Of a DNA stretch of 64,000 nt, positions 1,452 through 28,340 are shown piece by piece (within the stretch, counting starts at the first letter, position 1; each line of letters starts with the position of its first letter). Below the pieces are notes generated by a model. That model had not been told where the DNA came from and did not search any database. It was given only the letters and a program-made list of their open reading frames with translations. The stretch comes from Acidimicrobiia bacterium. GTDB taxonomy: Bacteria > Actinomycetota > Acidimicrobiia > Spongiisociales > ZC4RG35. Made by a program: the position numbers and the translations under genes. Where the stretch lies: contig CBDBCY010000004.1 in NCBI GenBank assembly GCA_965203555.1, positions 832,001-896,000 on the forward strand. The letters run 5' to 3'.

Positions 1452-1867
1452 TCGCAGTCTGTCATCCCAACCCCGTACCCACTTGCGGACGAGGTCGCGA
1501 TATTTTTCTTTGAGAAATCGTTGTGTAATGGTTGAAGTCTGTCTCAGGCCCGGTGCATATTGAATAGACAAACATGATTGCGGTCCGGACCGTGGTCATC
1601 AGATCGGTCTTGTTCTTGGTCGAGACGCTGGTTTGACAGTGTCCCCGAGGGCGGACTATCTAGCCGACAACTGATTATGTTTCGGGTTCGGACAGGCCTG
1701 CGCCTGTTCGCGCCTTTTGTGACGGTCAGGAGGCGGCGGGTCGGGAGGGGAAACCCAAAATAGGAGGGTGATGCCGCGGGGCAAGAGTGGGAAAACCGGA
1801 TGGCAGGGGACCGGTGGCGGGTGGAGGATGGCGTCCCGGGTGGGAAGAGTCGGGGGAAGTGGTCTGT

Positions 1868-12651: not shown

Positions 12652-12725
12652 TCCGGGGTAGCTCAATTCGGCAGAGCGGCGGGCTGTTAACCCGAAGGTT
12701 GTGGGTTCGAGTCCCACCCCCGGAG
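12652..12725 (+). tRNA. tRNA-Asn (GTT)
   Basis: Acceptor TCCGGGG/CCCCGGA, D arm TAGCTCAATTCGGCAGAGC, anticodon loop CT-GTT-AA, T arm GTGGGTTCGAGTCCCAC. Confidence 0.95.
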
Positions 12726-12860
12726 CTGATAATACAGGTATTTGCCCAGGTCAGAGGACCTTTAGGTCTAATCCGACATCACTTGTGGCATCTACTGGCC
12801 CCGATGATTCATGGGTGGGAATCCCAGCTTGGTGCAGCATAGGCAGGGGTGGGACCAAGT

Positions 12861-16363: not shown

Positions 16364-17029
16364 GTGATCCAATCCTCCGCTTCCCCCTCCCCGACCACCC
16401 CCTTGGTGGAATTGGTCGATCTCTCCGTTTCGTTGGGCGGGGTCCGAGTACTTTCGGATTGCCGACTCACACTCCATCCCGGTGAGTGCCTGGGGGTGGC
16501 AGGACCAAACGGCGCCGGGAAATCGACGCTGCTGGCCACGGTAGCCACCTTCATCTCCCCCGCCGAGGGCGCCGGAACGGTCATGGGGGTTCCCCTCGGT
16601 ACACCCCGAACCCCGGCGGTACGCTCCCGGATCGGATGGTCCGGGCATCTCCCCGCCCTTTATCCCGACCTGACTCTTGGCGAGAACCTGACCATGGCCG
16701 CCCGGTTGAGTGGCCGCTCCGCCAACGACGGAGATCGCGCCCTCCAGAAGGTGGGATTGGGACGGGCTCGCAATATACGTGTGGAGAGGTGCTCCAACGG
16801 AATGAAACGAAGAGCCGACCTGGCCCGGTTACTGATCGGCCGGCCGCGCCTGGTGCTGCTCGACGAACCCGACGCCGGCCTGGACCGGGACGCCGCTTCG
16901 ATCATCACCCACTTGATCAGTAGAACCACCAGCCGGGGCGGCGGCGTGCTGTGCGTCTCCCACGATGCCGCCCGATTGTCGGGCTGGGCAGACCGGGTGG
17001 TGGAGATCAGGGAGGGAAGGATCAGATGA
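16364..17029 (+). CDS. ccmA: Heme export ABC ATPase CcmA
   Basis: GPNGAGKST, CSNGMKRR, LLDEP; first gene of the ccm operon. Confidence 0.88.
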   Translation: MIQSSASPSPTTPLVELVDLSVSLGGVRVLSDCRLTLHPGECLGVAGPNGAGKSTLLATVATFISPAEGAGTVMGVPLGTPRTPAVRSRIGWSGHLPALYPDLTLGENLTMAARLSGRSANDGDRALQKVGLGRARNIRVERCSNGMKRRADLARLLIGRPRLVLLDEPDAGLDRDAASIITHLISRTTSRGGGVLCVSHDAARLSGWADRVVEIREGRIR

Positions 17030-17703
17030 CGGCCGGTTTCTGGAGGTCCGCATCAATCATTGCCCTGCGCGATCTCCGGGTTGAGATTCGAAGCGGAGAA
17101 GCTCTGTCGGTGGTCTTTCCGTTCGCGGTCGTAGCCACCTGGGTGGTGCCCCTGGCGACCGACGCCTCCCGGAGTTTGCTCAGGGATCTGGCTGCTCCCG
17201 TCTACTGGCTGATCTTTCTGCTGTTCGGAATGATGATCGTTTTCCGGCAGACCGCGGTGGAGACATCGGACCAAAGGCGCGTGCTGGCGCTGACGGGCCT
17301 TGACCCGGCTGCCCGGTTCGCAGGCCGCTCAGCAGCGTCGGCACTGATCCTGGTCCCGATATCGGGGACGCTGGTCTTTCCGATCATCGTGCTCTACGAC
17401 TACCGGCCTCCGTCGGGAACGATCCTGATGGTCCCAGTGATCATCCTCGCCGCGGCAGGAATATCCATGTTGGGGACCTTGGCCGCAGATGTAACCGTGG
17501 GATTGAGGGCCCGCACCAGCCTCGCCCCCCTGCTGATGGCGCCCTTGGCCGCTCCCCTCCTGATGGGCGCTTCCCAGGCCCTGGAAAGCTTGATCGCCGA
17601 ACGCGGTATCATCATCTGGGTACTGGTGCTGGTTATCGCTGACCTGGGGTTGGCCGCCGCCGGAGTCATGTCGGCCCGGGCCTTGGAGGAAATCGCTCTG
17701 TGA
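17026..17703 (+). CDS. ccmB: Heme exporter permease CcmB
   Basis: RDLRVEIRS, six TM segments, LAPLLMAPLAAPLL; overlaps the ccmA stop. Confidence 0.85.
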   Translation: MTAGFWRSASIIALRDLRVEIRSGEALSVVFPFAVVATWVVPLATDASRSLLRDLAAPVYWLIFLLFGMMIVFRQTAVETSDQRRVLALTGLDPAARFAGRSAASALILVPISGTLVFPIIVLYDYRPPSGTILMVPVIILAAAGISMLGTLAADVTVGLRARTSLAPLLMAPLAAPLLMGASQALESLIAERGIIIWVLVLVIADLGLAAAGVMSARALEEIAL

Positions 17704-18404
17704 AAAAGAAGGTTCTCGCCACCCTGACCGTCCTGGCGTTGGCGGCGGGTCTGGCCACTGCATTCACCTCACCCCCCGACGTCTTGCAGGGTGACTTCGT
17801 TCGGATCCTCTACATTCACGTTCCTTCAGCCTGGTTGGCTTTTCTGGCCTTCGGAGTCACTGCGGTGGGAAGCATCGGGTGGCTGTTCACCCACCGGATG
17901 GGTTGGGACCGGGTGGCTGAGGCGTCTGCGGAGACGGGCGTGCTCTTCACGGCCGTCGCCCTGGCCACCGGGATGATCTGGGGAAAGCCGGTCTGGGGCA
18001 CTTACTGGGATTGGGGTGACGCACGATTGGCCACCACCGCCCTGATGTTCTTCGTCTACCTGGGCTACCTGGCACTGCGTCGCACCACGTCCGACCCCTA
18101 CCGTCAGGCCCGTCGTTCATCGGTATTGGGAGCGGTGGCGGTCGTGCAGGTGCCGCTGGTCTATTTTTCGGTGAAACTGTGGCGCACCCTCCACCAGGGT
18201 CTCACCATCCGCCCCGACGGCATCCAAATGGACGGCGCCATGGTCACGGCACTGCTGGCGAACCTGGGAGCTTTCACCTTGCTTTACCTGACTCTGATCA
18301 GCTTCCGGACCGAACTGGCCCGACTTGAGAAAGCTGTTCACGAATCGCAGGTCTCGGTCCAAAACCGTGTCACCGTCCCCCAACTGGGTAAAGCAGAAGC
18401 GTGA
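17700..18404 (+). CDS. ccmC: Heme exporter CcmC
   Basis: RILYIHVPSAW, TGMIWGKPVWGTYWDWGDARL (WWD domain), WRTLHQ. Confidence 0.94.
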   Translation: MKKKVLATLTVLALAAGLATAFTSPPDVLQGDFVRILYIHVPSAWLAFLAFGVTAVGSIGWLFTHRMGWDRVAEASAETGVLFTAVALATGMIWGKPVWGTYWDWGDARLATTALMFFVYLGYLALRRTTSDPYRQARRSSVLGAVAVVQVPLVYFSVKLWRTLHQGLTIRPDGIQMDGAMVTALLANLGAFTLLYLTLISFRTELARLEKAVHESQVSVQNRVTVPQLGKAEA

Positions 18405-18511
18405 ACGCCGGTTGGGTATGGGCAGCGTATCTTGCCACGGGCCTGATCCTGGCGGGCTACGTTCTCCGCCTGGTGGTCCGGTGGCGGAGGGCGACCGGTC
18501 GCCGCGACTGA
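18401..18511 (+). CDS. ccmD: CcmD-like small membrane protein (36 aa, absent from the ORF track)
   Basis: MNAGWVWAAYLATGLILAGYVLRLVVRWRRATGRRD; overlaps the ccmC stop and ccmE start. Confidence 0.75.
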   Translation: MNAGWVWAAYLATGLILAGYVLRLVVRWRRATGRRD

Positions 18512-18918
18512 TGAAGGTACGCCGCTGGCCGTTTTTGATCTCGGCGGGGGTGGCCATCCTGATAGCCGGCTTCTTCCTGGTGCAGAACATCGGCAACGAC
18601 CTGGTCTACTACCTCACTCCCCACGAAGCCGTGACCCAGCGCGCCGACTTCACCGACGGCCGGCGCTTCCGGTTGGCGGGCGTCGTGGTGGAGGGGTCGC
18701 TGCGGGAAGGTAGCGATCCGCTCAGGTTCGAACTCACCGATGGCGCTTCCACCATTTCCGTCCTTCTCACCGACACCCCTCCTCTCCTGTTCGACGAGGA
18801 TGTGAACGTGCTGCTGGACGGGGCTTGGCAAGATGATCACTATCGGGCGGACGGGGCACTTGTATCCCATGATGAGAATTACGAGGCCCCTCCGGTGACC
18901 GGCGTCTCGGAACCCTGA
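18511..18918 (+). CDS. ccmE: Heme chaperone CcmE
   Basis: LVYYLTP, RFRLAGVV, PLLFDE, HDENY (HxxxY). Confidence 0.93.
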   Translation: MKVRRWPFLISAGVAILIAGFFLVQNIGNDLVYYLTPHEAVTQRADFTDGRRFRLAGVVVEGSLREGSDPLRFELTDGASTISVLLTDTPPLLFDEDVNVLLDGAWQDDHYRADGALVSHDENYEAPPVTGVSEP

Positions 18919-20966
18919 TGCTCTCCTTCTCCGGAACCCTGGCGGTGTGGGCGGCGCTGTTCGGCGCGGCCTGGCTGACATTGACGGCTTGGCAGGCGGC
19001 CAGGCGGCGCTCTTTCTCCGTAGCCGTTCTCCGTAGGCCGATGCTGACCATGGTCCTGGCTGCCGTGGCCGCCATGGTGGTCCTGCTCGCCGCCCTGCTG
19101 GCCAACGATTTCACTGTCTCCTACGTGGCGAACCACCATTCCCGACATACCCCTTTTCCCTTCAACATCGCCACTGCCTGGGCGGCTCTGGAGGGCTCTA
19201 TAGTGCTCTGGGGGCTGGTGCTGGCCGGTTATGCCTACTTCGTCTGGCGACGAGCCACCACCAGAAGTGGGCAGCCGGACGCCTTGGACTGGGGCGCCCT
19301 GGCTGCTATCGCAGCGGTGGGGGTGTTCTTCTTCGGATTGATGGCTACGGTGGGCAATCCCTTCGAGGTGTGCGTGGAGGCCACCTCCCGCTCCTGCGCC
19401 GTCTCCAGCGCCATACCCTTCTCCCCGGCGGTGGGGCCTGCTGACGGCGCCGGCCCCAACCCGCTCTTGCAGAACCATATCTTGATGGCTATTCACCCAC
19501 CGCTTCTCTACCTGGGCTACGTGGGAATGACCGTTCCCTTCGCCTATGGCGTCGCCGCCCTGGCCCTGCGCCGACCCGGTTCGGAGTGGCTGCGCCGAAG
19601 CGGCATGTGGACCAGGATCAGCTGGGTGTTTCTCACCGCCGGCATCACCCTGGGCGCCTGGTGGGCTTACGAGGTGTTGGGCTGGGGAGGGTATTGGGCG
19701 TGGGACCCGGTGGAGAACGCCTCTTTCATGCCCTGGCTGGTCGCCACCGCCTTCCTGCATTCCTCCCTGGTGCAGGAGCGCAGAGGAATGTTGGAGGCGT
19801 GGAATTTCGTGCTGGTGATCGGAACCTTCTCCTTGACCATCCTCGGCACTTTCCTTACCCGTTCCGGAGTGATCGCTTCGGTCCATTCCTTCACCCAGTC
19901 GGCGATCGGCCCGGCGCTTTTGGGATTCCTGGTGGTGGTGGTGGTGGGCTCGTTCACTTTGTTCGCGGCGCGCGCCCAGTTGATCTCCTCACCTCCCCGG
20001 TTGGAGTCCCTTTCCAGTCGGGAGGGGAGTTTCCTGCTCAACAACCTGCTCTTGACTGTGTATGCAATGGTGGTGCTGACCGGCACCATCTATCCGCTGG
20101 TGCTGGAAGCCTTCACCGGTTCTGAGGTGGGAGTGGGGAGGCCCTTCTTTGATCGTCTGGCCGTTCCCATCAGCTTTGCCCTGTTGCTGGCGATGGGTTT
20201 GGGACCCGCCCTCCCCTGGCGGGTGGCCCGGCCCAAAATAGTGTGGCCCCGGATACATCTTCCCCTCCAAGTGGCGTTGGGAGTCGCAGCGGTGGTGGTG
20301 ATGACCGCCACCGCGATCGGCTATGTGGTGCTGGCGGTGCTGGCGGGCAGCTGGGTGGTGGCGGTGGCTGCCTATCGCCTCTGGGCCCAGGCCCGTCGGA
20401 TCGCCGGATCCAGAGGAACGGCGGTTCACAGGCAGTTGGGAAGAGTCGTCCGGTCCGATCGAGGGTTCTGGGGAGGCCAGGTGGCTCACGCCGGGGTGGC
20501 GTTGGCGGCGGTGGCCATCGCCACCACCGCCAACCTGGGGCAAACCCTGGACCGGGTGGAGCTGACGCCCGGGGACCGGGTCGAGTTTGCCGGGTACCAG
20601 TTGCTCCACACCGGCGTGGACACTGCCAGGACGCCAAACCGTCTCACCAGTTCCGCCGCCGTGCAGGTCTGGAAGGACGACGCATTGCAGGGACTGGCGA
20701 GACCTTCCCTGAGCCAATTCGAGACCTCGGCTCTGCCGATTGCCACTCCCGGGATACATCGCACCTTCAAAGAGGACCTCTACCTGAGCCTGACCCGCAT
20801 CGACGAGCAGGGCATCACCCTGCGGGCGGCCACCGCTCCCCTCCAATGGGTGCTGTGGGTGGGCGGCCTGCTCTGCGCGGCGGGAGGTCTCTATTCGCTG
20901 GTGGGACGGAACCGTCGCCGGTCCGCCTCCCCGGCCCGGATGAAGGGACCCCGCCCGCGTGGATGA
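18918..20966 (+). CDS. ccmF: Heme lyase CcmF
   Basis: NDFTVSYVA, WAALEGS, NPLLQN, IHPPLLYLGY, WAYEVLGWGGYWAWDPVENASFMPW, SVHSF. Confidence 0.96.
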   Translation: MLSFSGTLAVWAALFGAAWLTLTAWQAARRRSFSVAVLRRPMLTMVLAAVAAMVVLLAALLANDFTVSYVANHHSRHTPFPFNIATAWAALEGSIVLWGLVLAGYAYFVWRRATTRSGQPDALDWGALAAIAAVGVFFFGLMATVGNPFEVCVEATSRSCAVSSAIPFSPAVGPADGAGPNPLLQNHILMAIHPPLLYLGYVGMTVPFAYGVAALALRRPGSEWLRRSGMWTRISWVFLTAGITLGAWWAYEVLGWGGYWAWDPVENASFMPWLVATAFLHSSLVQERRGMLEAWNFVLVIGTFSLTILGTFLTRSGVIASVHSFTQSAIGPALLGFLVVVVVGSFTLFAARAQLISSPPRLESLSSREGSFLLNNLLLTVYAMVVLTGTIYPLVLEAFTGSEVGVGRPFFDRLAVPISFALLLAMGLGPALPWRVARPKIVWPRIHLPLQVALGVAAVVVMTATAIGYVVLAVLAGSWVVAVAAYRLWAQARRIAGSRGTAVHRQLGRVVRSDRGFWGGQVAHAGVALAAVAIATTANLGQTLDRVELTPGDRVEFAGYQLLHTGVDTARTPNRLTSSAAVQVWKDDALQGLARPSLSQFETSALPIATPGIHRTFKEDLYLSLTRIDEQGITLRAATAPLQWVLWVGGLLCAAGGLYSLVGRNRRRSASPARMKGPRPRG

Positions 20967-21393
20967 CCAACCGACCGTCAAGCGGCGTCTCCGGCGGCTC
21001 TCCCCCCTGGTCACGGTAGGGCTGGGGATCTTCATACTGGTCTCGGTCGTAAACGCCGACCCTATAGCTCAAGACCGTTCCGAGCGCCTGGGAAAACAGG
21101 TGCGCTGCCCGGCCTGCGAAGGGGAATCCATAGCCGAGTCGCCCAGTTCCTACGCAGCCGACATGATGACCTACGTGCGTGAACTGATAGACGGGGGGCT
21201 GTCCGACCGGCAAGTCTTGGACCGGTTGATGGCGTCATACCCGGATTCCCAGTTACTCGATCCTCCGCTGAGAGCCGGCACTGTTCTGTTGTGGCTTGTT
21301 CCCGCCGCCGCCTTGCTGGCCGGTGCGGGCCTGGCCGTATCCCGCCTCCGCAGGCGGCCGATCTTCTGGCCGGATGGAGATCCCGGTGAGTGA
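20959..21393 (+). CDS. ccmH: CcmH N-terminal domain protein
   Basis: VRCPACEGESIAES, LLDPP, LLWLVP. Confidence 0.9.
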   Translation: MDDQPTVKRRLRRLSPLVTVGLGIFILVSVVNADPIAQDRSERLGKQVRCPACEGESIAESPSSYAADMMTYVRELIDGGLSDRQVLDRLMASYPDSQLLDPPLRAGTVLLWLVPAAALLAGAGLAVSRLRRRPIFWPDGDPGE

Positions 21394-22174
21394 GGAATCC
21401 AAGTGGCAGCGGCGATTCGACCAGGCCTCCCGGGATCTGGAAGAGTTGGAACTGCAGCTCGCCCAGGGTGAGATACCCGCGTCAACCGGTAGGAGACTGC
21501 AAGAGACATACCGGGAGGAGATGGAGGAGGCCCGGCGCGGCATTGGGGATGCAACACCAGGAGTGGACCCCGACTCGGCGCCTGCCGGGGAGGACGTCCG
21601 GTCCACGGGATTCTGGAACCAGGGAAGGATCTTGGTGGCGGTCATTCTGGCGGCCGCCGCCTTGGCGTTGGTGGTTTCAGTGGGTTGGTTCGCCCGGCCC
21701 GAACAGCAGGTCGCTTCCGACCAGGAGTTCGATCCGTCCAGTTATTCCAACGAGACCATGGAGGCGGTGATCGCCGCCAACGCCGATCACCCCCGGATAA
21801 ACGGGATGCGCCTGGCCCTGGCAGCGCGGTATTTCCAGGCGGGAGAATTCTCGGGCGCCTTTGCCCATTACCGGGAAGTATTGGAACGCGACCCGCTCCC
21901 CGGCGAGGAGGCCGAGGCTTTGAGACGCCTGGGTTGGATGGCCTGGGCGGGTTCGGGAGAAGTTCAGTTGGCCGTCGAGACCCTGGACCGGTCCCTGGTC
22001 GTGGTCCCAAACCACCCCCAGACCCTCTATTTCAAGGCCATTGTCCTCTGGTGCGGCGCCGGACAGCATCAGGAGGCTGTTCCGCTATTGGAACGAGTTG
22101 TCGAAGCTCTGCCCGCCGAGACCGAAGTCGTCGCCGAACTGGCCGCCGCCCGGGAGGGAGAAACGTGTCGGTGA
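21386..22174 (+). CDS. CcmI/CycH-like TPR protein
   Basis: DLEELELQLAQGEI segment, one TM, TPR-like helices; operon position. Confidence 0.75.
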   Translation: MSEESKWQRRFDQASRDLEELELQLAQGEIPASTGRRLQETYREEMEEARRGIGDATPGVDPDSAPAGEDVRSTGFWNQGRILVAVILAAAALALVVSVGWFARPEQQVASDQEFDPSSYSNETMEAVIAANADHPRINGMRLALAARYFQAGEFSGAFAHYREVLERDPLPGEEAEALRRLGWMAWAGSGEVQLAVETLDRSLVVVPNHPQTLYFKAIVLWCGAGQHQEAVPLLERVVEALPAETEVVAELAAAREGETCR

Positions 22175-22725
22175 GTTACAAGCCCGGCCGGGCGGTGATG
22201 GCTCTTGCGGCACTGGTGGTGGTCTCGACTGCGGTTGTCGCCGGGGTTTTTGCCTCCCGACTCTCAAACGACCCCCTATCAACCCCCTCACCGCTGATCG
22301 GCAGGCAGTCACCCATCTTGACCCTTCCGTTCCTGGACGGATCGGGGGAACTCGCCATCCCGGATCCCGAGGCCGAGGTGACCATCATCAACTTCTTTGC
22401 ATCCTGGTGCCTGGAGTGCCGGGTGGAGCATGCCGATCTGATGGCGGTGGCCGATGCCTTCTCCGGGGCGGGAGTCCGACTGGTCCAGATCGCCTACCAG
22501 GATCGCACCACAGACGCCATCGCCTTCGTCAACGAGATGGGAGTTTCACCCCTGGTCGGCTACGTTTCCGACCCCGGCAGTCGCGCAGCCATCTCATTCG
22601 GGGTTTTCGGGGTGCCGGAGACTTACGTCATCGGACCGGACGGCACGGTTACGGAAAGGATCACCGGACCGACCACCGCCCTGCAGTTGGGTGAACAGAT
22701 AGACCGCGTGCTGGGCGCCGGGTAG
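22171..22725 (+). CDS. ccmG: CcmG/DsbE thiol-disulfide oxidoreductase
   Basis: SPLIG, INFFASWCLECRVEH, GVFGVPETYVI. Confidence 0.88.
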   Translation: MSYKPGRAVMALAALVVVSTAVVAGVFASRLSNDPLSTPSPLIGRQSPILTLPFLDGSGELAIPDPEAEVTIINFFASWCLECRVEHADLMAVADAFSGAGVRLVQIAYQDRTTDAIAFVNEMGVSPLVGYVSDPGSRAAISFGVFGVPETYVIGPDGTVTERITGPTTALQLGEQIDRVLGAG

Positions 22726-24200: not shown

Positions 24201-25055
24201 TCAGCCCGATACGGAAAGCAGCTCTTCGATGGCGCTCCTCAGGGAAGATTCACCCTGAGCACCGAACAGCGTCTGGACAATGGTCTTGTCGGCGCCGACC
24301 AGAACGGTCACCGGCTGGTAACCGACTCCATAGGCCGAAAAGATCCGCTCCTCCTGGTCCAGGCCCCACTTCACTGCTCCGCTGGTCAAAAGCTGCCCGG
24401 CTCTTTGTGAGGTGTCCGACAGGCCGGCCTTCCAGGCCGGAGCCACGAATGCCACACGATCCTGGTACTCGGTCGCCAGTTGATCCACGACGGGCAACTC
24501 CCGTCGACAAGCCGGTCACCACTCGGCCCAAAACACCAGGTAGACAGGCCGCGGTTCGGCAGAAAGGGTGAAGGTTCCACCGTTTCCCAACTCCAAGGTG
24601 AAATCGGGTGCGCCTGGACGATCATGAGCCTCGGTCGTGGTGGTCGTGGGAGCAGCCGTAGAAGTGGTAGTGATCGCCCCAGTGGTTGTCGGGGGTTGGG
24701 TGGTGGGAGCGGCAGTCGTGGTGGCGACAGTGTCCTCGTCGGTCACAACCGCCACCGTGGTGGTGACGTCCGTGTCAACCTCCTCAGCCGCCGTCGTCTC
24801 TGCTGCCACCGTGTTCGTGGTTACCGCCCCGCTGGTCGGCGCCGGATCGTTGTCGCCCAAAGCGGGATCCTCAACCCCTGAAGAAGGTTCCTCCACCGGC
24901 TGGTCCAAGGTCGACTGGGTGGTTGGCGCGGCACCGGCGCTTTCGATCTGTGGGTCCGTATCTTCCGAACCACATGCGCTCCACACCAGTCCGCAAAGTA
25001 CCCAGACAGCCAACCTCACCCGGCCAGGGGGTTGGGAAGGCTTTGTGCGGCTCAT
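24201..25055 (-). CDS. Selenocysteine-containing redoxin (TlpA-like) lipoprotein, UPAC, 284 aa, Thr-rich linker
   Basis: ORFs 24516-25055 and 24201-24497 are in frame across a TGA at 24516-24518: FWAEW-U-PACRRELP...GYQPVT; lipobox WSAC. Confidence 0.9.
24488..24506 (-). promoter_or_regulatory. Bacterial SECIS-like hairpin
   Basis: CGACGGG-AGUUG-CCCGUCG; loop begins 16 nt after the UGA. Confidence 0.8.
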
Positions 25056-25651
25056 CAGGCGTCAGCCAACAGGGTGTCGAGGACCTCCCGGATCGCATCG
25101 GGGTTCCTGGCTCCGCGCCAAGTGGAGACCAGGGAGCCGTCGGCCGCGATGATCGCCCCGGCCGGCTGTCCTCCCACACCGTAGGCGGCGAAAACCTCCT
25201 GCTTTCCATCCAACCCCCACAGGACCTTCCCTGAAGGCAACAGACGATCTGCAACCTGGGTGGTATCTTCCAAACTCGACTTCCAGGCCGGCGCCACCAC
25301 CACGACCCTCCCTTCGTATTCCCCGGCCAACTGGTCGAAAGCGGGCAACTCCCGCCTACAGGTAGGTCACCACTCAGCCCAAAAGATCATAAGGACCGGG
25401 GTGGTCTGGTCCGAAAGAGCGAACGTCCCGCCATCGGCCAACTGCAATGTGAAATCGGGCGCCGGCGGCCCGAGAAGTTCATCCGTGGTTGTCGGGGTCG
25501 TGGTTGCAACTGTGGTTTCGGGAGAGCTGGTCACCGCGGCGACGGCCTCCGCCGGTTCACTGCTGTCCGAACCCCCGCCCCCGCAGGAGGATACGACCAA
25601 ACCAATCAGCAACAATACGGCTGTCCAAGACCAGCGCCCGCCGCGATTCAT
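25055..25651 (-). CDS. Selenocysteine-containing redoxin (TlpA-like) lipoprotein, UPTC, 198 aa
   Basis: ORFs 25367-25651 and 25055-25348 are in frame across a TGA at 25367-25369: FWAEW-U-PTCRRELP...GGQPAG; lipobox VSSC; TGATG coupling to the next gene. Confidence 0.9.
25339..25357 (-). promoter_or_regulatory. Bacterial SECIS-like hairpin
   Basis: AGGCGGG-AGUUG-CCCGCUU; loop begins 16 nt after the UGA. Confidence 0.8.
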
Positions 25652-27961: not shown

Positions 27962-28340
27962 AGAGCGAGTTCGCCGGGTGACCGCGGGCGTAGGGTAAAA
28001 CCGAGGCTTGAGGAAAGTCCGGACTCCACAGGGCAGGGTGCTGGGTAACGCCCAGGCGGGGCGACCCGACGGAAAGTGCCACAGAGAACAGACCGCCGAT
28101 GGCTCTTGACCAGAGAGCACAGGCAAAGGTGAAACGGTGGTGTAAGAGACCACCAGCGCGCCGGGTAACCGGGGCGGCTGGTAAACCCCACCCGGAGCAA
28201 GGCTAAGCAGGGACGCGGCGGCCCATCGAATCGTCCCGGGTGAGCCGCACGAGGTCGCCGGCGACGGCGATCCCAGATGGATGGTCACCGGGGGCCGGAA
28301 ACGGTCCCCACAGAATCCGGCTTACAGGCGAACTCGTTCT
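27962..28340 (+). ncRNA. rnpB: RNase P RNA, class A
   Basis: GAGGAAAGTCCGGACTCC, AGTGCCACAGA, GGTGAAACGG, GGTAAACCCC, ACAGAATCCGGCTTA; P1 GAGCGAGTTCGCC/GGCGAACTCGTTC. Confidence 0.97.

Follow-up and report, generated by a model that had tools for sequence, protein, structure and literature searches.

Tandem thioredoxin-fold genes of an Acidimicrobiia bacterium very probably use in-frame UGA codons for selenocysteine, with covarying hairpins that fit the general bacterial SECIS model

Two adjacent pairs of open reading frames (ORFs) on the minus strand of a genome segment from an Acidimicrobiia bacterium (Actinomycetota) become two continuous genes if TGA is translated as selenocysteine (Sec, U), and each TGA is followed by a small hairpin with the same loop. 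The segment, hereafter the window, is a stretch of 64,000 nucleotides (nt) from GenBank assembly GCA_965203555.1 (contig CBDBCY010000004.1, positions 832,001 to 896,000). Are these hairpins selenocysteine insertion sequence (SECIS) elements and, if so, do they form a class peculiar to the lineage, as a sequence-only reading of the window had proposed? We found that the two genes very probably form a tandem pair encoding exported thioredoxin-fold proteins, in which each UGA is recoded as Sec by an ordinary bacterial SECIS. The part of the proposal that concerned a functional SECIS under selection on the RNA is upheld; the part that concerned lineage specificity is not, as the hairpins fit the general bacterial SECIS (bSECIS) model and those of the other eight selenoprotein genes are different.

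Gene A (25058..25651, minus strand) encodes a 198-amino-acid (aa) ResA/TlpA-like thioredoxin-fold protein, and gene B (24204..25055, minus strand) encodes a 284-aa paralogue with a Thr/Pro-rich linker, both translated with TGA as U. The in-frame UGA of gene A (U95; 25367..25369, minus strand) corresponds in the alignment to Cys in the Cys-form orthologues and to UGA in 72 homologues, and that of gene B (U180; 24516..24518, minus strand) was located by translation and by the alignment of homologues. The active sites, WAEW-U95-P-T-C in gene A and WAEW-U180-P-A-C in gene B, have the common form FWAEW-U-P-[TA]-C-R-R-E-L-P. The hydrophobic N-termini of both proteins end in Cys (VSSC in A and WSAC in B) and, judged by eye, look lipoprotein-like; they are followed by a Thr/Pro-rich linker and then by the thioredoxin-fold domain. 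The UGA that ends gene A (25057-25055) and the ATG of gene B (25055-25053) have one A in common, and this TGATG overlap (25053..25057, minus strand), read directly from the DNA, suggests that the translation of the two genes is coupled.

Matches to the Pfam families AhpC-TSA, Redoxin, and Thioredoxin were all above the cut-offs, and in both genes the domain runs across the UGA. Gene A scored 54.7 bits with AhpC-TSA (PF00578, cut-off 26) and 52.5 bits with Redoxin (PF08534, cut-off 26.6), and gene B scored 41.4 bits with Redoxin and 40.4 bits with AhpC-TSA. The domains of A and B are 55% identical over 135 aa, and gene B represents the canonical form of the family across the order. The closest NCBIfam models for both were ResA, TlpA, StoA, DsbE, and WAxxUGC, all far under the cut-off: for A and B, respectively, 51.6 and 51.5 bits with ResA (NF002854, cut-off 170), 38.2 and 26.9 bits with TlpA (NF047696, cut-off 230), and 32.9 and 27.3 bits with WAxxUGC_long (NF041054, cut-off 300). 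The two proteins are relatives of the ResA, TlpA, and WAxxUGC_long families and not members of them.

The sequence-only reading had described 9 nt, a 7-base-pair (bp) stem, and an AGUUG loop after each UGA, and exactly this geometry was found in both genes on the minus strand. In gene A, the UGA (25369-25367) is followed by the spacer CCUACCUGU (25366-25358), the 5' arm (25357-25351), the loop (25350-25346), and the 3' arm (25345-25339); in gene B, the UGA (24518-24516) is followed by the spacer (24515-24507), the 5' arm (24506-24500), the loop (24499-24495), and the 3' arm (24494-24488). The distance from UGA to loop, that is, the 9-nt spacer plus the 7-bp stem, is 16 nt in both. Hairpin A (AGGCGGG / AGUUG / CCCGCUU; 25339..25357, minus strand) has an evaluated folding free energy (dG) of -10.2 kcal/mol, and hairpin B (CGACGGG / AGUUG / CCCGUCG; 24488..24506, minus strand) has one of -11.6 kcal/mol. 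With R1, a calibrated covariance model that we built from 76 homologues, they scored 44.7 bits (E 2.7e-6) and 51.1 bits (E 1.1e-7), respectively. According to RNAfold, both are part of the minimum-free-energy (MFE) structure. The stem and loop of hairpin B are the majority form among the relatives. The three compensated pairs that had been read from the two sequences (C-G to A-U, G-C to G-U, and A-U to G-C) are all present; the differences in the 5' arm are synonymous Arg codons (AGG in A, CGA in B), and those in the 3' arm alter the protein, as claimed, from PVV in gene B to PAF in gene A (Val-Val versus Ala-Phe). An extension of the stem into a lower helix (G20-C42 and U19-G43, in columns of the alignment A1 described below), judged by eye, was abandoned, as column 42 falls on a third codon position that varies freely.

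Such an arrangement is infrequent by chance. The genome examined (3.42 Mb in 4 contigs, 62% G+C) contains 90,897 TGA trinucleotides, of which 145 have the exact geometry (TGA-N9-7 bp-5-nt loop), and the loop is AGTTG in 3 of these 145. When the peptide was kept fixed and the codons were redrawn from the codon usage of the genome (100,000 draws), a 7-bp stem was obtained in 1.0% of the draws for gene A and in 3.6% for gene B, and a stem of at least 6 bp with an AGTTG loop in 0.7% and 2.0%, respectively.

To what extent is the hairpin maintained among relatives? A six-frame search of 100 genomes from the same family gave matches in 92 (93 of 101 if the window's own genome is included), mostly with exactly one TGA. 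We fetched 70 loci (the locus of G033 was left out) and extracted every frame with the motif FWAEW[U/C]xxC and so obtained 72 Sec and 6 Cys homologues; the 72 Sec sequences form the gap-free alignment A1. The reading frames are open and conserved on either side of the UGA. The named stem pairs are formed in 94.4% of the 497 cells of these 72 sequences, and two-sided changes are found at five of the seven pairs (28 cells). In 500 column shuffles, the observed values were never matched on any of five covariation measures, and in controls with a slid register pairing was found in 35-73% of the cells. In the common register, all seven pairs are formed in 53 sequences, six in 16 sequences, and two to four in the other 3. 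Several of the exchanges join a non-synonymous change in one arm with a synonymous change in the other, such as CGA (Arg) to CAA (Gln) together with GUC to GUU.

The codons that make up the hairpin are also unusually uniform. Among sequences with the majority residue, codon entropy is about 1-1.8 bits for flanking codons and collapses exactly over the hairpin: Arg+5 is CGG in 70/70 sequences, Glu+6 is GAG in 70/70, and Pro+8 is CCC in 94%. Leu+7 is TTG or TTA in all 72 sequences and never CTN, in a genome where CTG and CTC account for 69% of the Leu codons in long ORFs. At the order level, the A, the G, and the second U of the loop are invariant in 76/76 homologues, and the first U in 75/76. 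Since the hairpin is built from the codons of C-R-R-E-L-P-V-V, the synonymous sites (CGG, GAG, UUG/UUA, and CCC) are frozen, and changes in the first Arg/Gln/Lys codon are coupled to changes in the opposite Val/Ala codons.

If the hairpin serves the decoding of UGA, orthologues that encode Cys should be free to lose it, and the survival of an equally good hairpin in them had been named as the finding that would speak against a SECIS. Six Cys orthologues, five of them from the genus g9 and the sixth from G020, show 50-62% identity to gene B across the entire domain, and the Sec residue aligns with the first Cys of their CxxC motif (FWAEW-U-xx-C versus FWAEW-C-xx-C). The hairpin has been lost in 6/6: two to four of the seven pairs are left, and the evaluated dG is between -4.8 and +5.4 kcal/mol, compared with a mean of -10.4 kcal/mol in the Sec sequences. 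The SECIS interpretation thus survives. One of the Cys forms, L044, encodes the identical peptide CRRELPVVD with the codons CGG CGA GAA CTT CCG GTG GTA, which do not form the hairpin; so the nucleotide conservation in the Sec forms serves the RNA and not the protein. The earlier suggestion of selection on RNA structure within a coding sequence is therefore borne out by the covariation among the 72 Sec homologues, by the frozen synonymous sites, and by the loss of the hairpin in the Cys orthologues.

The loss of the hairpin can be compared with the presence of the Sec machinery. We did not find selA in four of the five g9 genomes (G008, G064, G082, and G096; 90-95% complete), nor in the Cys-form genome G020, which is 55% complete, and we found it in 4/4 control genomes with the Sec form. 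For the genus g9, these observations are consistent with the loss of the Sec trait together with the replacement of Sec by Cys and the decay of the SECIS. The Sec/Cys state changes twice on the tree, and judging from the distribution of the two forms on this unrooted tree, Sec is probably the ancestral state.

The genome that contains the window has the full machinery. The selB gene scored 281.9 bits (cut-off 242.25) and includes the C-terminal SelB-wing_3 domain; selA (411.2 bits) adjoins selB; selD (379.8 bits) has an in-frame TGA of its own; and tRNA-Sec scored 78.7 bits (gathering score 47). From these genes, the organism is predicted to be able to decode Sec. We therefore consider the following course of events, along the lines of the established bacterial mechanism. 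Genes A and B would probably be co-translated and would yield exported (lipoprotein-like) thiol-disulfide oxidoreductases of the ResA/TlpA/Prx-like kind, in which the first Cys of CxxC would be replaced by UGA-encoded Sec (UxxC). The C-terminal winged-helix domain of SelB would bind the loop, with G21 and U22 (counted from the U of UGA) as the predicted contacts, and SelB would deliver Sec-tRNA(Sec) once the UGA is in the A site. The sequence features, the covariation, the freezing of codons, the loss of the hairpin in Cys orthologues, and the Sec machinery are observed; the binding by SelB and the actual insertion of Sec we infer.

Several points weigh against this interpretation. Sec insertion was deduced from sequence. 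The folding energies of 56-nt segments are unexceptional against dinucleotide shuffles (z = +0.84 and -1.42); therefore, the case is built on comparative evidence and not on stability. The 16-nt spacing is at the very edge (the lower bound) of the range published for bacterial SECIS elements. Three of the 72 Sec homologues fail to form the stem when read in the common register; the two KRQLP paralogues among them can instead pair in a shifted register, giving 5 bp and an AGUU tetraloop, and the third needs a bulge. One genome, G043, has the Cys form and yet has kept selA. Finally, the sequences are related to each other, so that the cell counts exceed the number of independent events. For this reason, the pair states were mapped on a tree, although this was a quick one (FastTree, from the 138-aa domain with the SECIS-encoding residues removed). 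On this tree, the G-C/A-U exchange at pair 2 requires at least six changes, in the genera g1, g31, and g34, and the A-U/G-C exchange at pair 3 requires at least two; states seen in single sequences are, at pair 1, A-U and G-C; at pair 2, U-A and C-G; at pair 4, G-U; and at pair 5, A-U.

How do the hairpins compare with known elements? The bSECIS model of Zhang and Gladyshev, as quoted in PMC13188914, has a loop of 3-9 nt, a stem of 4-16 bp, a spacing of 16-37 nt, and an MFE of -7.5 or lower, with a G within the first two loop positions and a G or U next to it. The window hairpins are likewise located directly 3' of the Sec UGA within the coding sequence; they have a 5-nt loop and a 7-bp stem, G is the second loop base with U next, and the dG of the hairpin is -10 to -12 kcal/mol. 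Among the homologues, the upper stem has at least 6 bp in 69/72. Unlike the commonest pattern of the model, in which N1 and N2 pair, the loop ends here (A and G/A) cannot make this pair, and the loop sequence is unusually invariant in the window gene family.

The SECIS of Escherichia coli fdhF, like those of formate dehydrogenase genes in general, has a GGUCU-type loop with G-U at a short fixed distance from the UGA and is bound by the C-terminal winged helix of SelB; the FdhA gene of the present genome has such a loop at 18 nt. The window hairpins resemble it as stem-loops with G-U in a small apical loop shortly after the UGA, but their loop is AGUUG, not GGUCU, and is 2 nt nearer to the UGA. 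In their canonical form they have no bulged U; the order-level homologue L106 needs one.

Rfam SECIS families gave no match to the window hairpins at the gathering score, nor at E <= 10, and according to a preprint (10.64898/2026.04.03.716425, 2026), Rfam covers bacterial SECIS elements poorly. The same preprint mentions selenoproteins, including a Sec-containing SelD, in another order of Acidimicrobiia. We found no paper on the SECIS of the FWAEW-U subfamily in a limited literature search.

As for the proteins, UxxC thioredoxin-fold selenoproteins are a kind that has been catalogued since the mid-2000s: Prx-like UxxC proteins are described in a Sargasso Sea study (PMC1088965), and a table in PMC13188914 includes a 'Prx-like thiol:disulfide oxidoreductase' (PF00578) and a 'Thiol:disulfide interchange protein' among selenoproteins. 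The proteins of the window share with the Prx-like UxxC proteins the thioredoxin fold, the UxxC motif with Sec at the nucleophilic position, Cys-form homologues, and PF00578 and PF08534 as the best Pfam matches. However, they form a distinct subfamily, FWAEW-U-x-x-C-R-R-E-L-P, which is tandem-duplicated in the genus. With ResA of Bacillus subtilis and TlpA of Bradyrhizobium they share a membrane- or lipid-anchored thioredoxin fold and a W-C-x-x-C...E-x-P region, and they have a cytochrome c maturation (ccm) cluster as a neighbor at about 1.5 kb; they differ from ResA and TlpA in having Sec in place of the first Cys and in scores far under the cut-offs of these families.

The alternative that survives best, although we consider it unlikely, is a lineage-specific SECIS class, UGA-N16-AGUUG, that is preferred by the SelB of the lineage and marks its selenoproteome. 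Besides the nearly complete invariance of AGUU(G/A) (75/76 order-level homologues), its strength depends on the other selenoprotein genes of the genome. We examined 14,453 TGA junctions, which were reduced to 250 by a codon log-odds score and a best-of-six-frames filter; the G+C content of third codon positions (GC3) was discarded as a coding filter, being too weak at 62% G+C, and the log-odds score was used instead. As the final pick from the 250 was made by eye, the ten selenoprotein genes now recognized are a minimum. A candidate with the motif CUWKC (C4:1868689) was rejected; by eye, it looks like the end of a long helicase-like gene, and it has no convincing hairpin. At least eight genes were found in addition to A and B (seven and SelD), of which seven were confirmed by family searches; their SECIS-like hairpins are the best predictions from single sequences.

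A second tandem TlpA-like pair, one member of which has SLH domains (G000:C4:2443385-2445290), has UCGAGC / AGUUC / GCUCGG at 34 nt in both copies. A Prx-like/SelL-related gene (C4:378331-379002) has GGCC / AGUU / GGCC at 16 nt. UGSC1 (contig C1 of 92 kb, 20720-21259, minus strand) has CGUGG / AGUUG / CCACG at 18 nt, with the loop encoded by W-S-C in another frame, and UGSC2 (C4:1832796-1833578) has GUCGUGC / AGUGU (or GUG) / GCACGAC at 18 nt. A WAxxUGC protein gene (C2:5229-6380; 259.8 bits with NF041054, cut-off 300) has UCUGCC / GGUCU / GGCAGG at 20 nt, and FdhA (C4:1465140-1467038; 646 bits with TIGR01591, cut-off 666) has CGUCGCC / GGUCU / GGCGGCG at 18 nt. The Sec-containing SelD (C4:2892744-2893658) has GGCGCAG / GUG / CUGCGCC at 33 nt.

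Thus AGUU is present in 6 of the 10 predicted SECIS elements, a suggestive but weak sign in favor of a special class: AGUUG occurs in the unrelated UGSC1, 18 nt past the UGA, AGUUC at 34 nt in the second TlpA-like pair, and an AGUU tetraloop is possible in the Prx-like gene. However, two of these six elements belong to the window paralogues and two to the second paralogous pair, so that the two AGUUC elements count as one. UGSC1 was found only in the window's genus, in 2 of 41 genomes of the family with identical hairpins, and so it provides no comparative information on the AGUUG loop; UGSC1 may be a recent acquisition or innovation of the genus. In the Prx-like orthologues (22 loci examined, the G033 locus left out), the loop is AGCU in the 13/13 captured by the filter, against AGUU in the genome examined (G000), and a different stem, GCCAG/YUGGC with a 9-nt loop, is conserved; this stem may be the real SECIS, and therefore the assignment for the Prx-like gene is uncertain. 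Seven of the eight further genes have another loop, with GGUCU in FdhA and the WAxxUGC gene, AGUGU (or GUG) in UGSC2, and GUG in SelD. As loops of AGUUG, AGUUC, GGUCU, and GUG at 16-34 nt occur in one genome, one SelB must serve all of them. One loop at the order level is AGCUC, and the window element itself fits the general bSECIS model.

The motif had also been offered as a key to the rest of the selenoproteome, and it did not work as such. A strict scan of the genome for TGA-N16-AGTTG hairpins gave, beyond the two window genes, only C2:104711, which was rejected as a false positive: it runs antisense to an ORF that is uninterrupted and, by eye, solute-binding-protein-like. When the loop was relaxed to NGTTR, 426 hairpins were found, of which 80 have a TGA 12-24 nt upstream and 15 of these have open frames on both sides; 3 of the 15 are true sites, namely the two window genes and UGSC1. 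R1 detected only the two window genes in the whole genome (51.1 and 44.7 bits; the next hit had 20 bits, E 0.6) and missed the other eight genes, and of these the relaxed scan added UGSC1 alone. In a related version of the alternative, the SelB of the order would have shifted toward AGUU pentaloops at the shortest distance that works (16-18 nt), as a SECIS subclass tuned to the lineage, with independent origins in the TlpA-like genes, UGSC1, and the second TlpA-like pair (with its longer spacer), alongside the inherited GGUCU; to this, too, we give little credence.

Could the UGA be read through by something other than Sec? Downstream RNA structures can stimulate readthrough in general, and the hairpin might in this way promote a SelB-independent insertion of Trp or Cys by a near-cognate tRNA. 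This is nevertheless very improbable: the site is the redox-active Cys position typical of Sec/Cys pairs, the loop retains the G-U signature of SelB ligands, and the Cys forms occur in genomes that yielded no selA (four of five in g9), which is expected if the UGA is Sec-dependent. That the UGAs are real stops, in split or decaying genes or as programmed termination with a hairpin kept for another reason, for example constraints on protein or codons or a role as a regulatory stem, is hardly credible, even though both genes also end with UGA and gene callers would split them at the internal one, since the UGA is located exactly at the nucleophilic Cys in 76 homologues with conserved frames on both sides, a Cys orthologue with the same peptide has no hairpin, and the Sec machinery is complete.

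Recoding of both UGAs as Sec by ordinary SECIS elements thus being preferred, how widely is the arrangement distributed? At E <= 1e-22, the family was found in 7 of 301 genomes of a phylum sample, all in the window's order, with 9 matches that have one TGA each. By family of the order, it was found in 3/3 genomes of f1 and in 1/1 each of f2, f3, and f4, and it was not found in other families of the class (0/15 genomes at the same threshold). The UGA at the nucleophilic Cys position of CxxC is thus seen in 76 homologues from four families of one order. Of the four members from outside the window's family, one has an identical hairpin, and each of the others has one variation: an A/G mismatch at pair 1, a bulged U, or the loop AGCUC. 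The last two, L106 with the bulged U (1594-1626, plus strand) and L104 with the AGCUC loop, which has no G-U (1768-1800, minus strand), may indicate how far the tolerance of the cognate SelB extends. A contig search with a back-translated FWAEWCxxC motif returned distant Cys homologues from many phyla (25-33% identity over long matches, with 59% in some short segments) and no Sec orthologues; only distant Cys forms were returned because the motif was back-translated with a Cys codon. What is confined to a lineage is the family of genes and the SECIS it has inherited; in the sample searched, it occurs in one order only.

In the window's genus, the gene is tandemly duplicated in 2-3 copies. The KRQLP paralogues (in place of RRELP) are a third tandem copy in two genomes of this genus (L023, 702-755, plus strand; L025, 2660-2713, minus strand), in which a change of Glu to Gln (GAG to CAG) moves the register, so that the hairpin has 5 bp and an AGUU tetraloop. 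At another locus (L022; G068:C2:2551756-2552055, minus strand), a third match lies between two Sec paralogues; it covers residues 39-138 only, with 65% identity and no TGA, and may be a partial or divergent copy without the active-site region.

In the window, the gene order on the minus strand is aquaporin, trpD, gene A, gene B, and a PAF-acetylhydrolase-like hydrolase. The system I ccm cluster (16364-22725, plus strand) comprises ccmA-like (ABC ATPase), ccmB, ccmC, ccmE, and ccmF, a TPR protein, and a CcmG-like redoxin; this redoxin is of the Cys form, with WCLEC, and the distance from the end of the cluster to the selenoprotein pair is about 1.5 kb. A tRNA-Asn (GTT) gene (12652-12726, plus strand) and a class A bacterial RNase P RNA (27966-28340, plus strand; 280 bits) are also present. 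It is plausible that selenoproteins A and B act as extracytoplasmic reductases, in cytochrome maturation or otherwise.

The hairpins are a clear case of an already known bacterial mechanism and not a new kind of signal, and no new mechanism of recoding was shown; the bacterium has at least ten selenoprotein genes. Were its SelB tuned to AGUU after all, the loop and spacing rules of the order would sharpen the prediction of selenoproteins there and define a case of SelB-SECIS co-evolution. Standard gene callers, which take UGA as a stop, are expected to split genes A and B, and because no Rfam model matches, R1 could help to annotate the subfamily in related genomes. The locus offers a clear natural experiment on codes that overlap: 19 nt both encode R-R-E-L-P-V-V and form a predicted ligand of SelB, and in relatives that have switched to Cys the peptide is kept while the hairpin has decayed.

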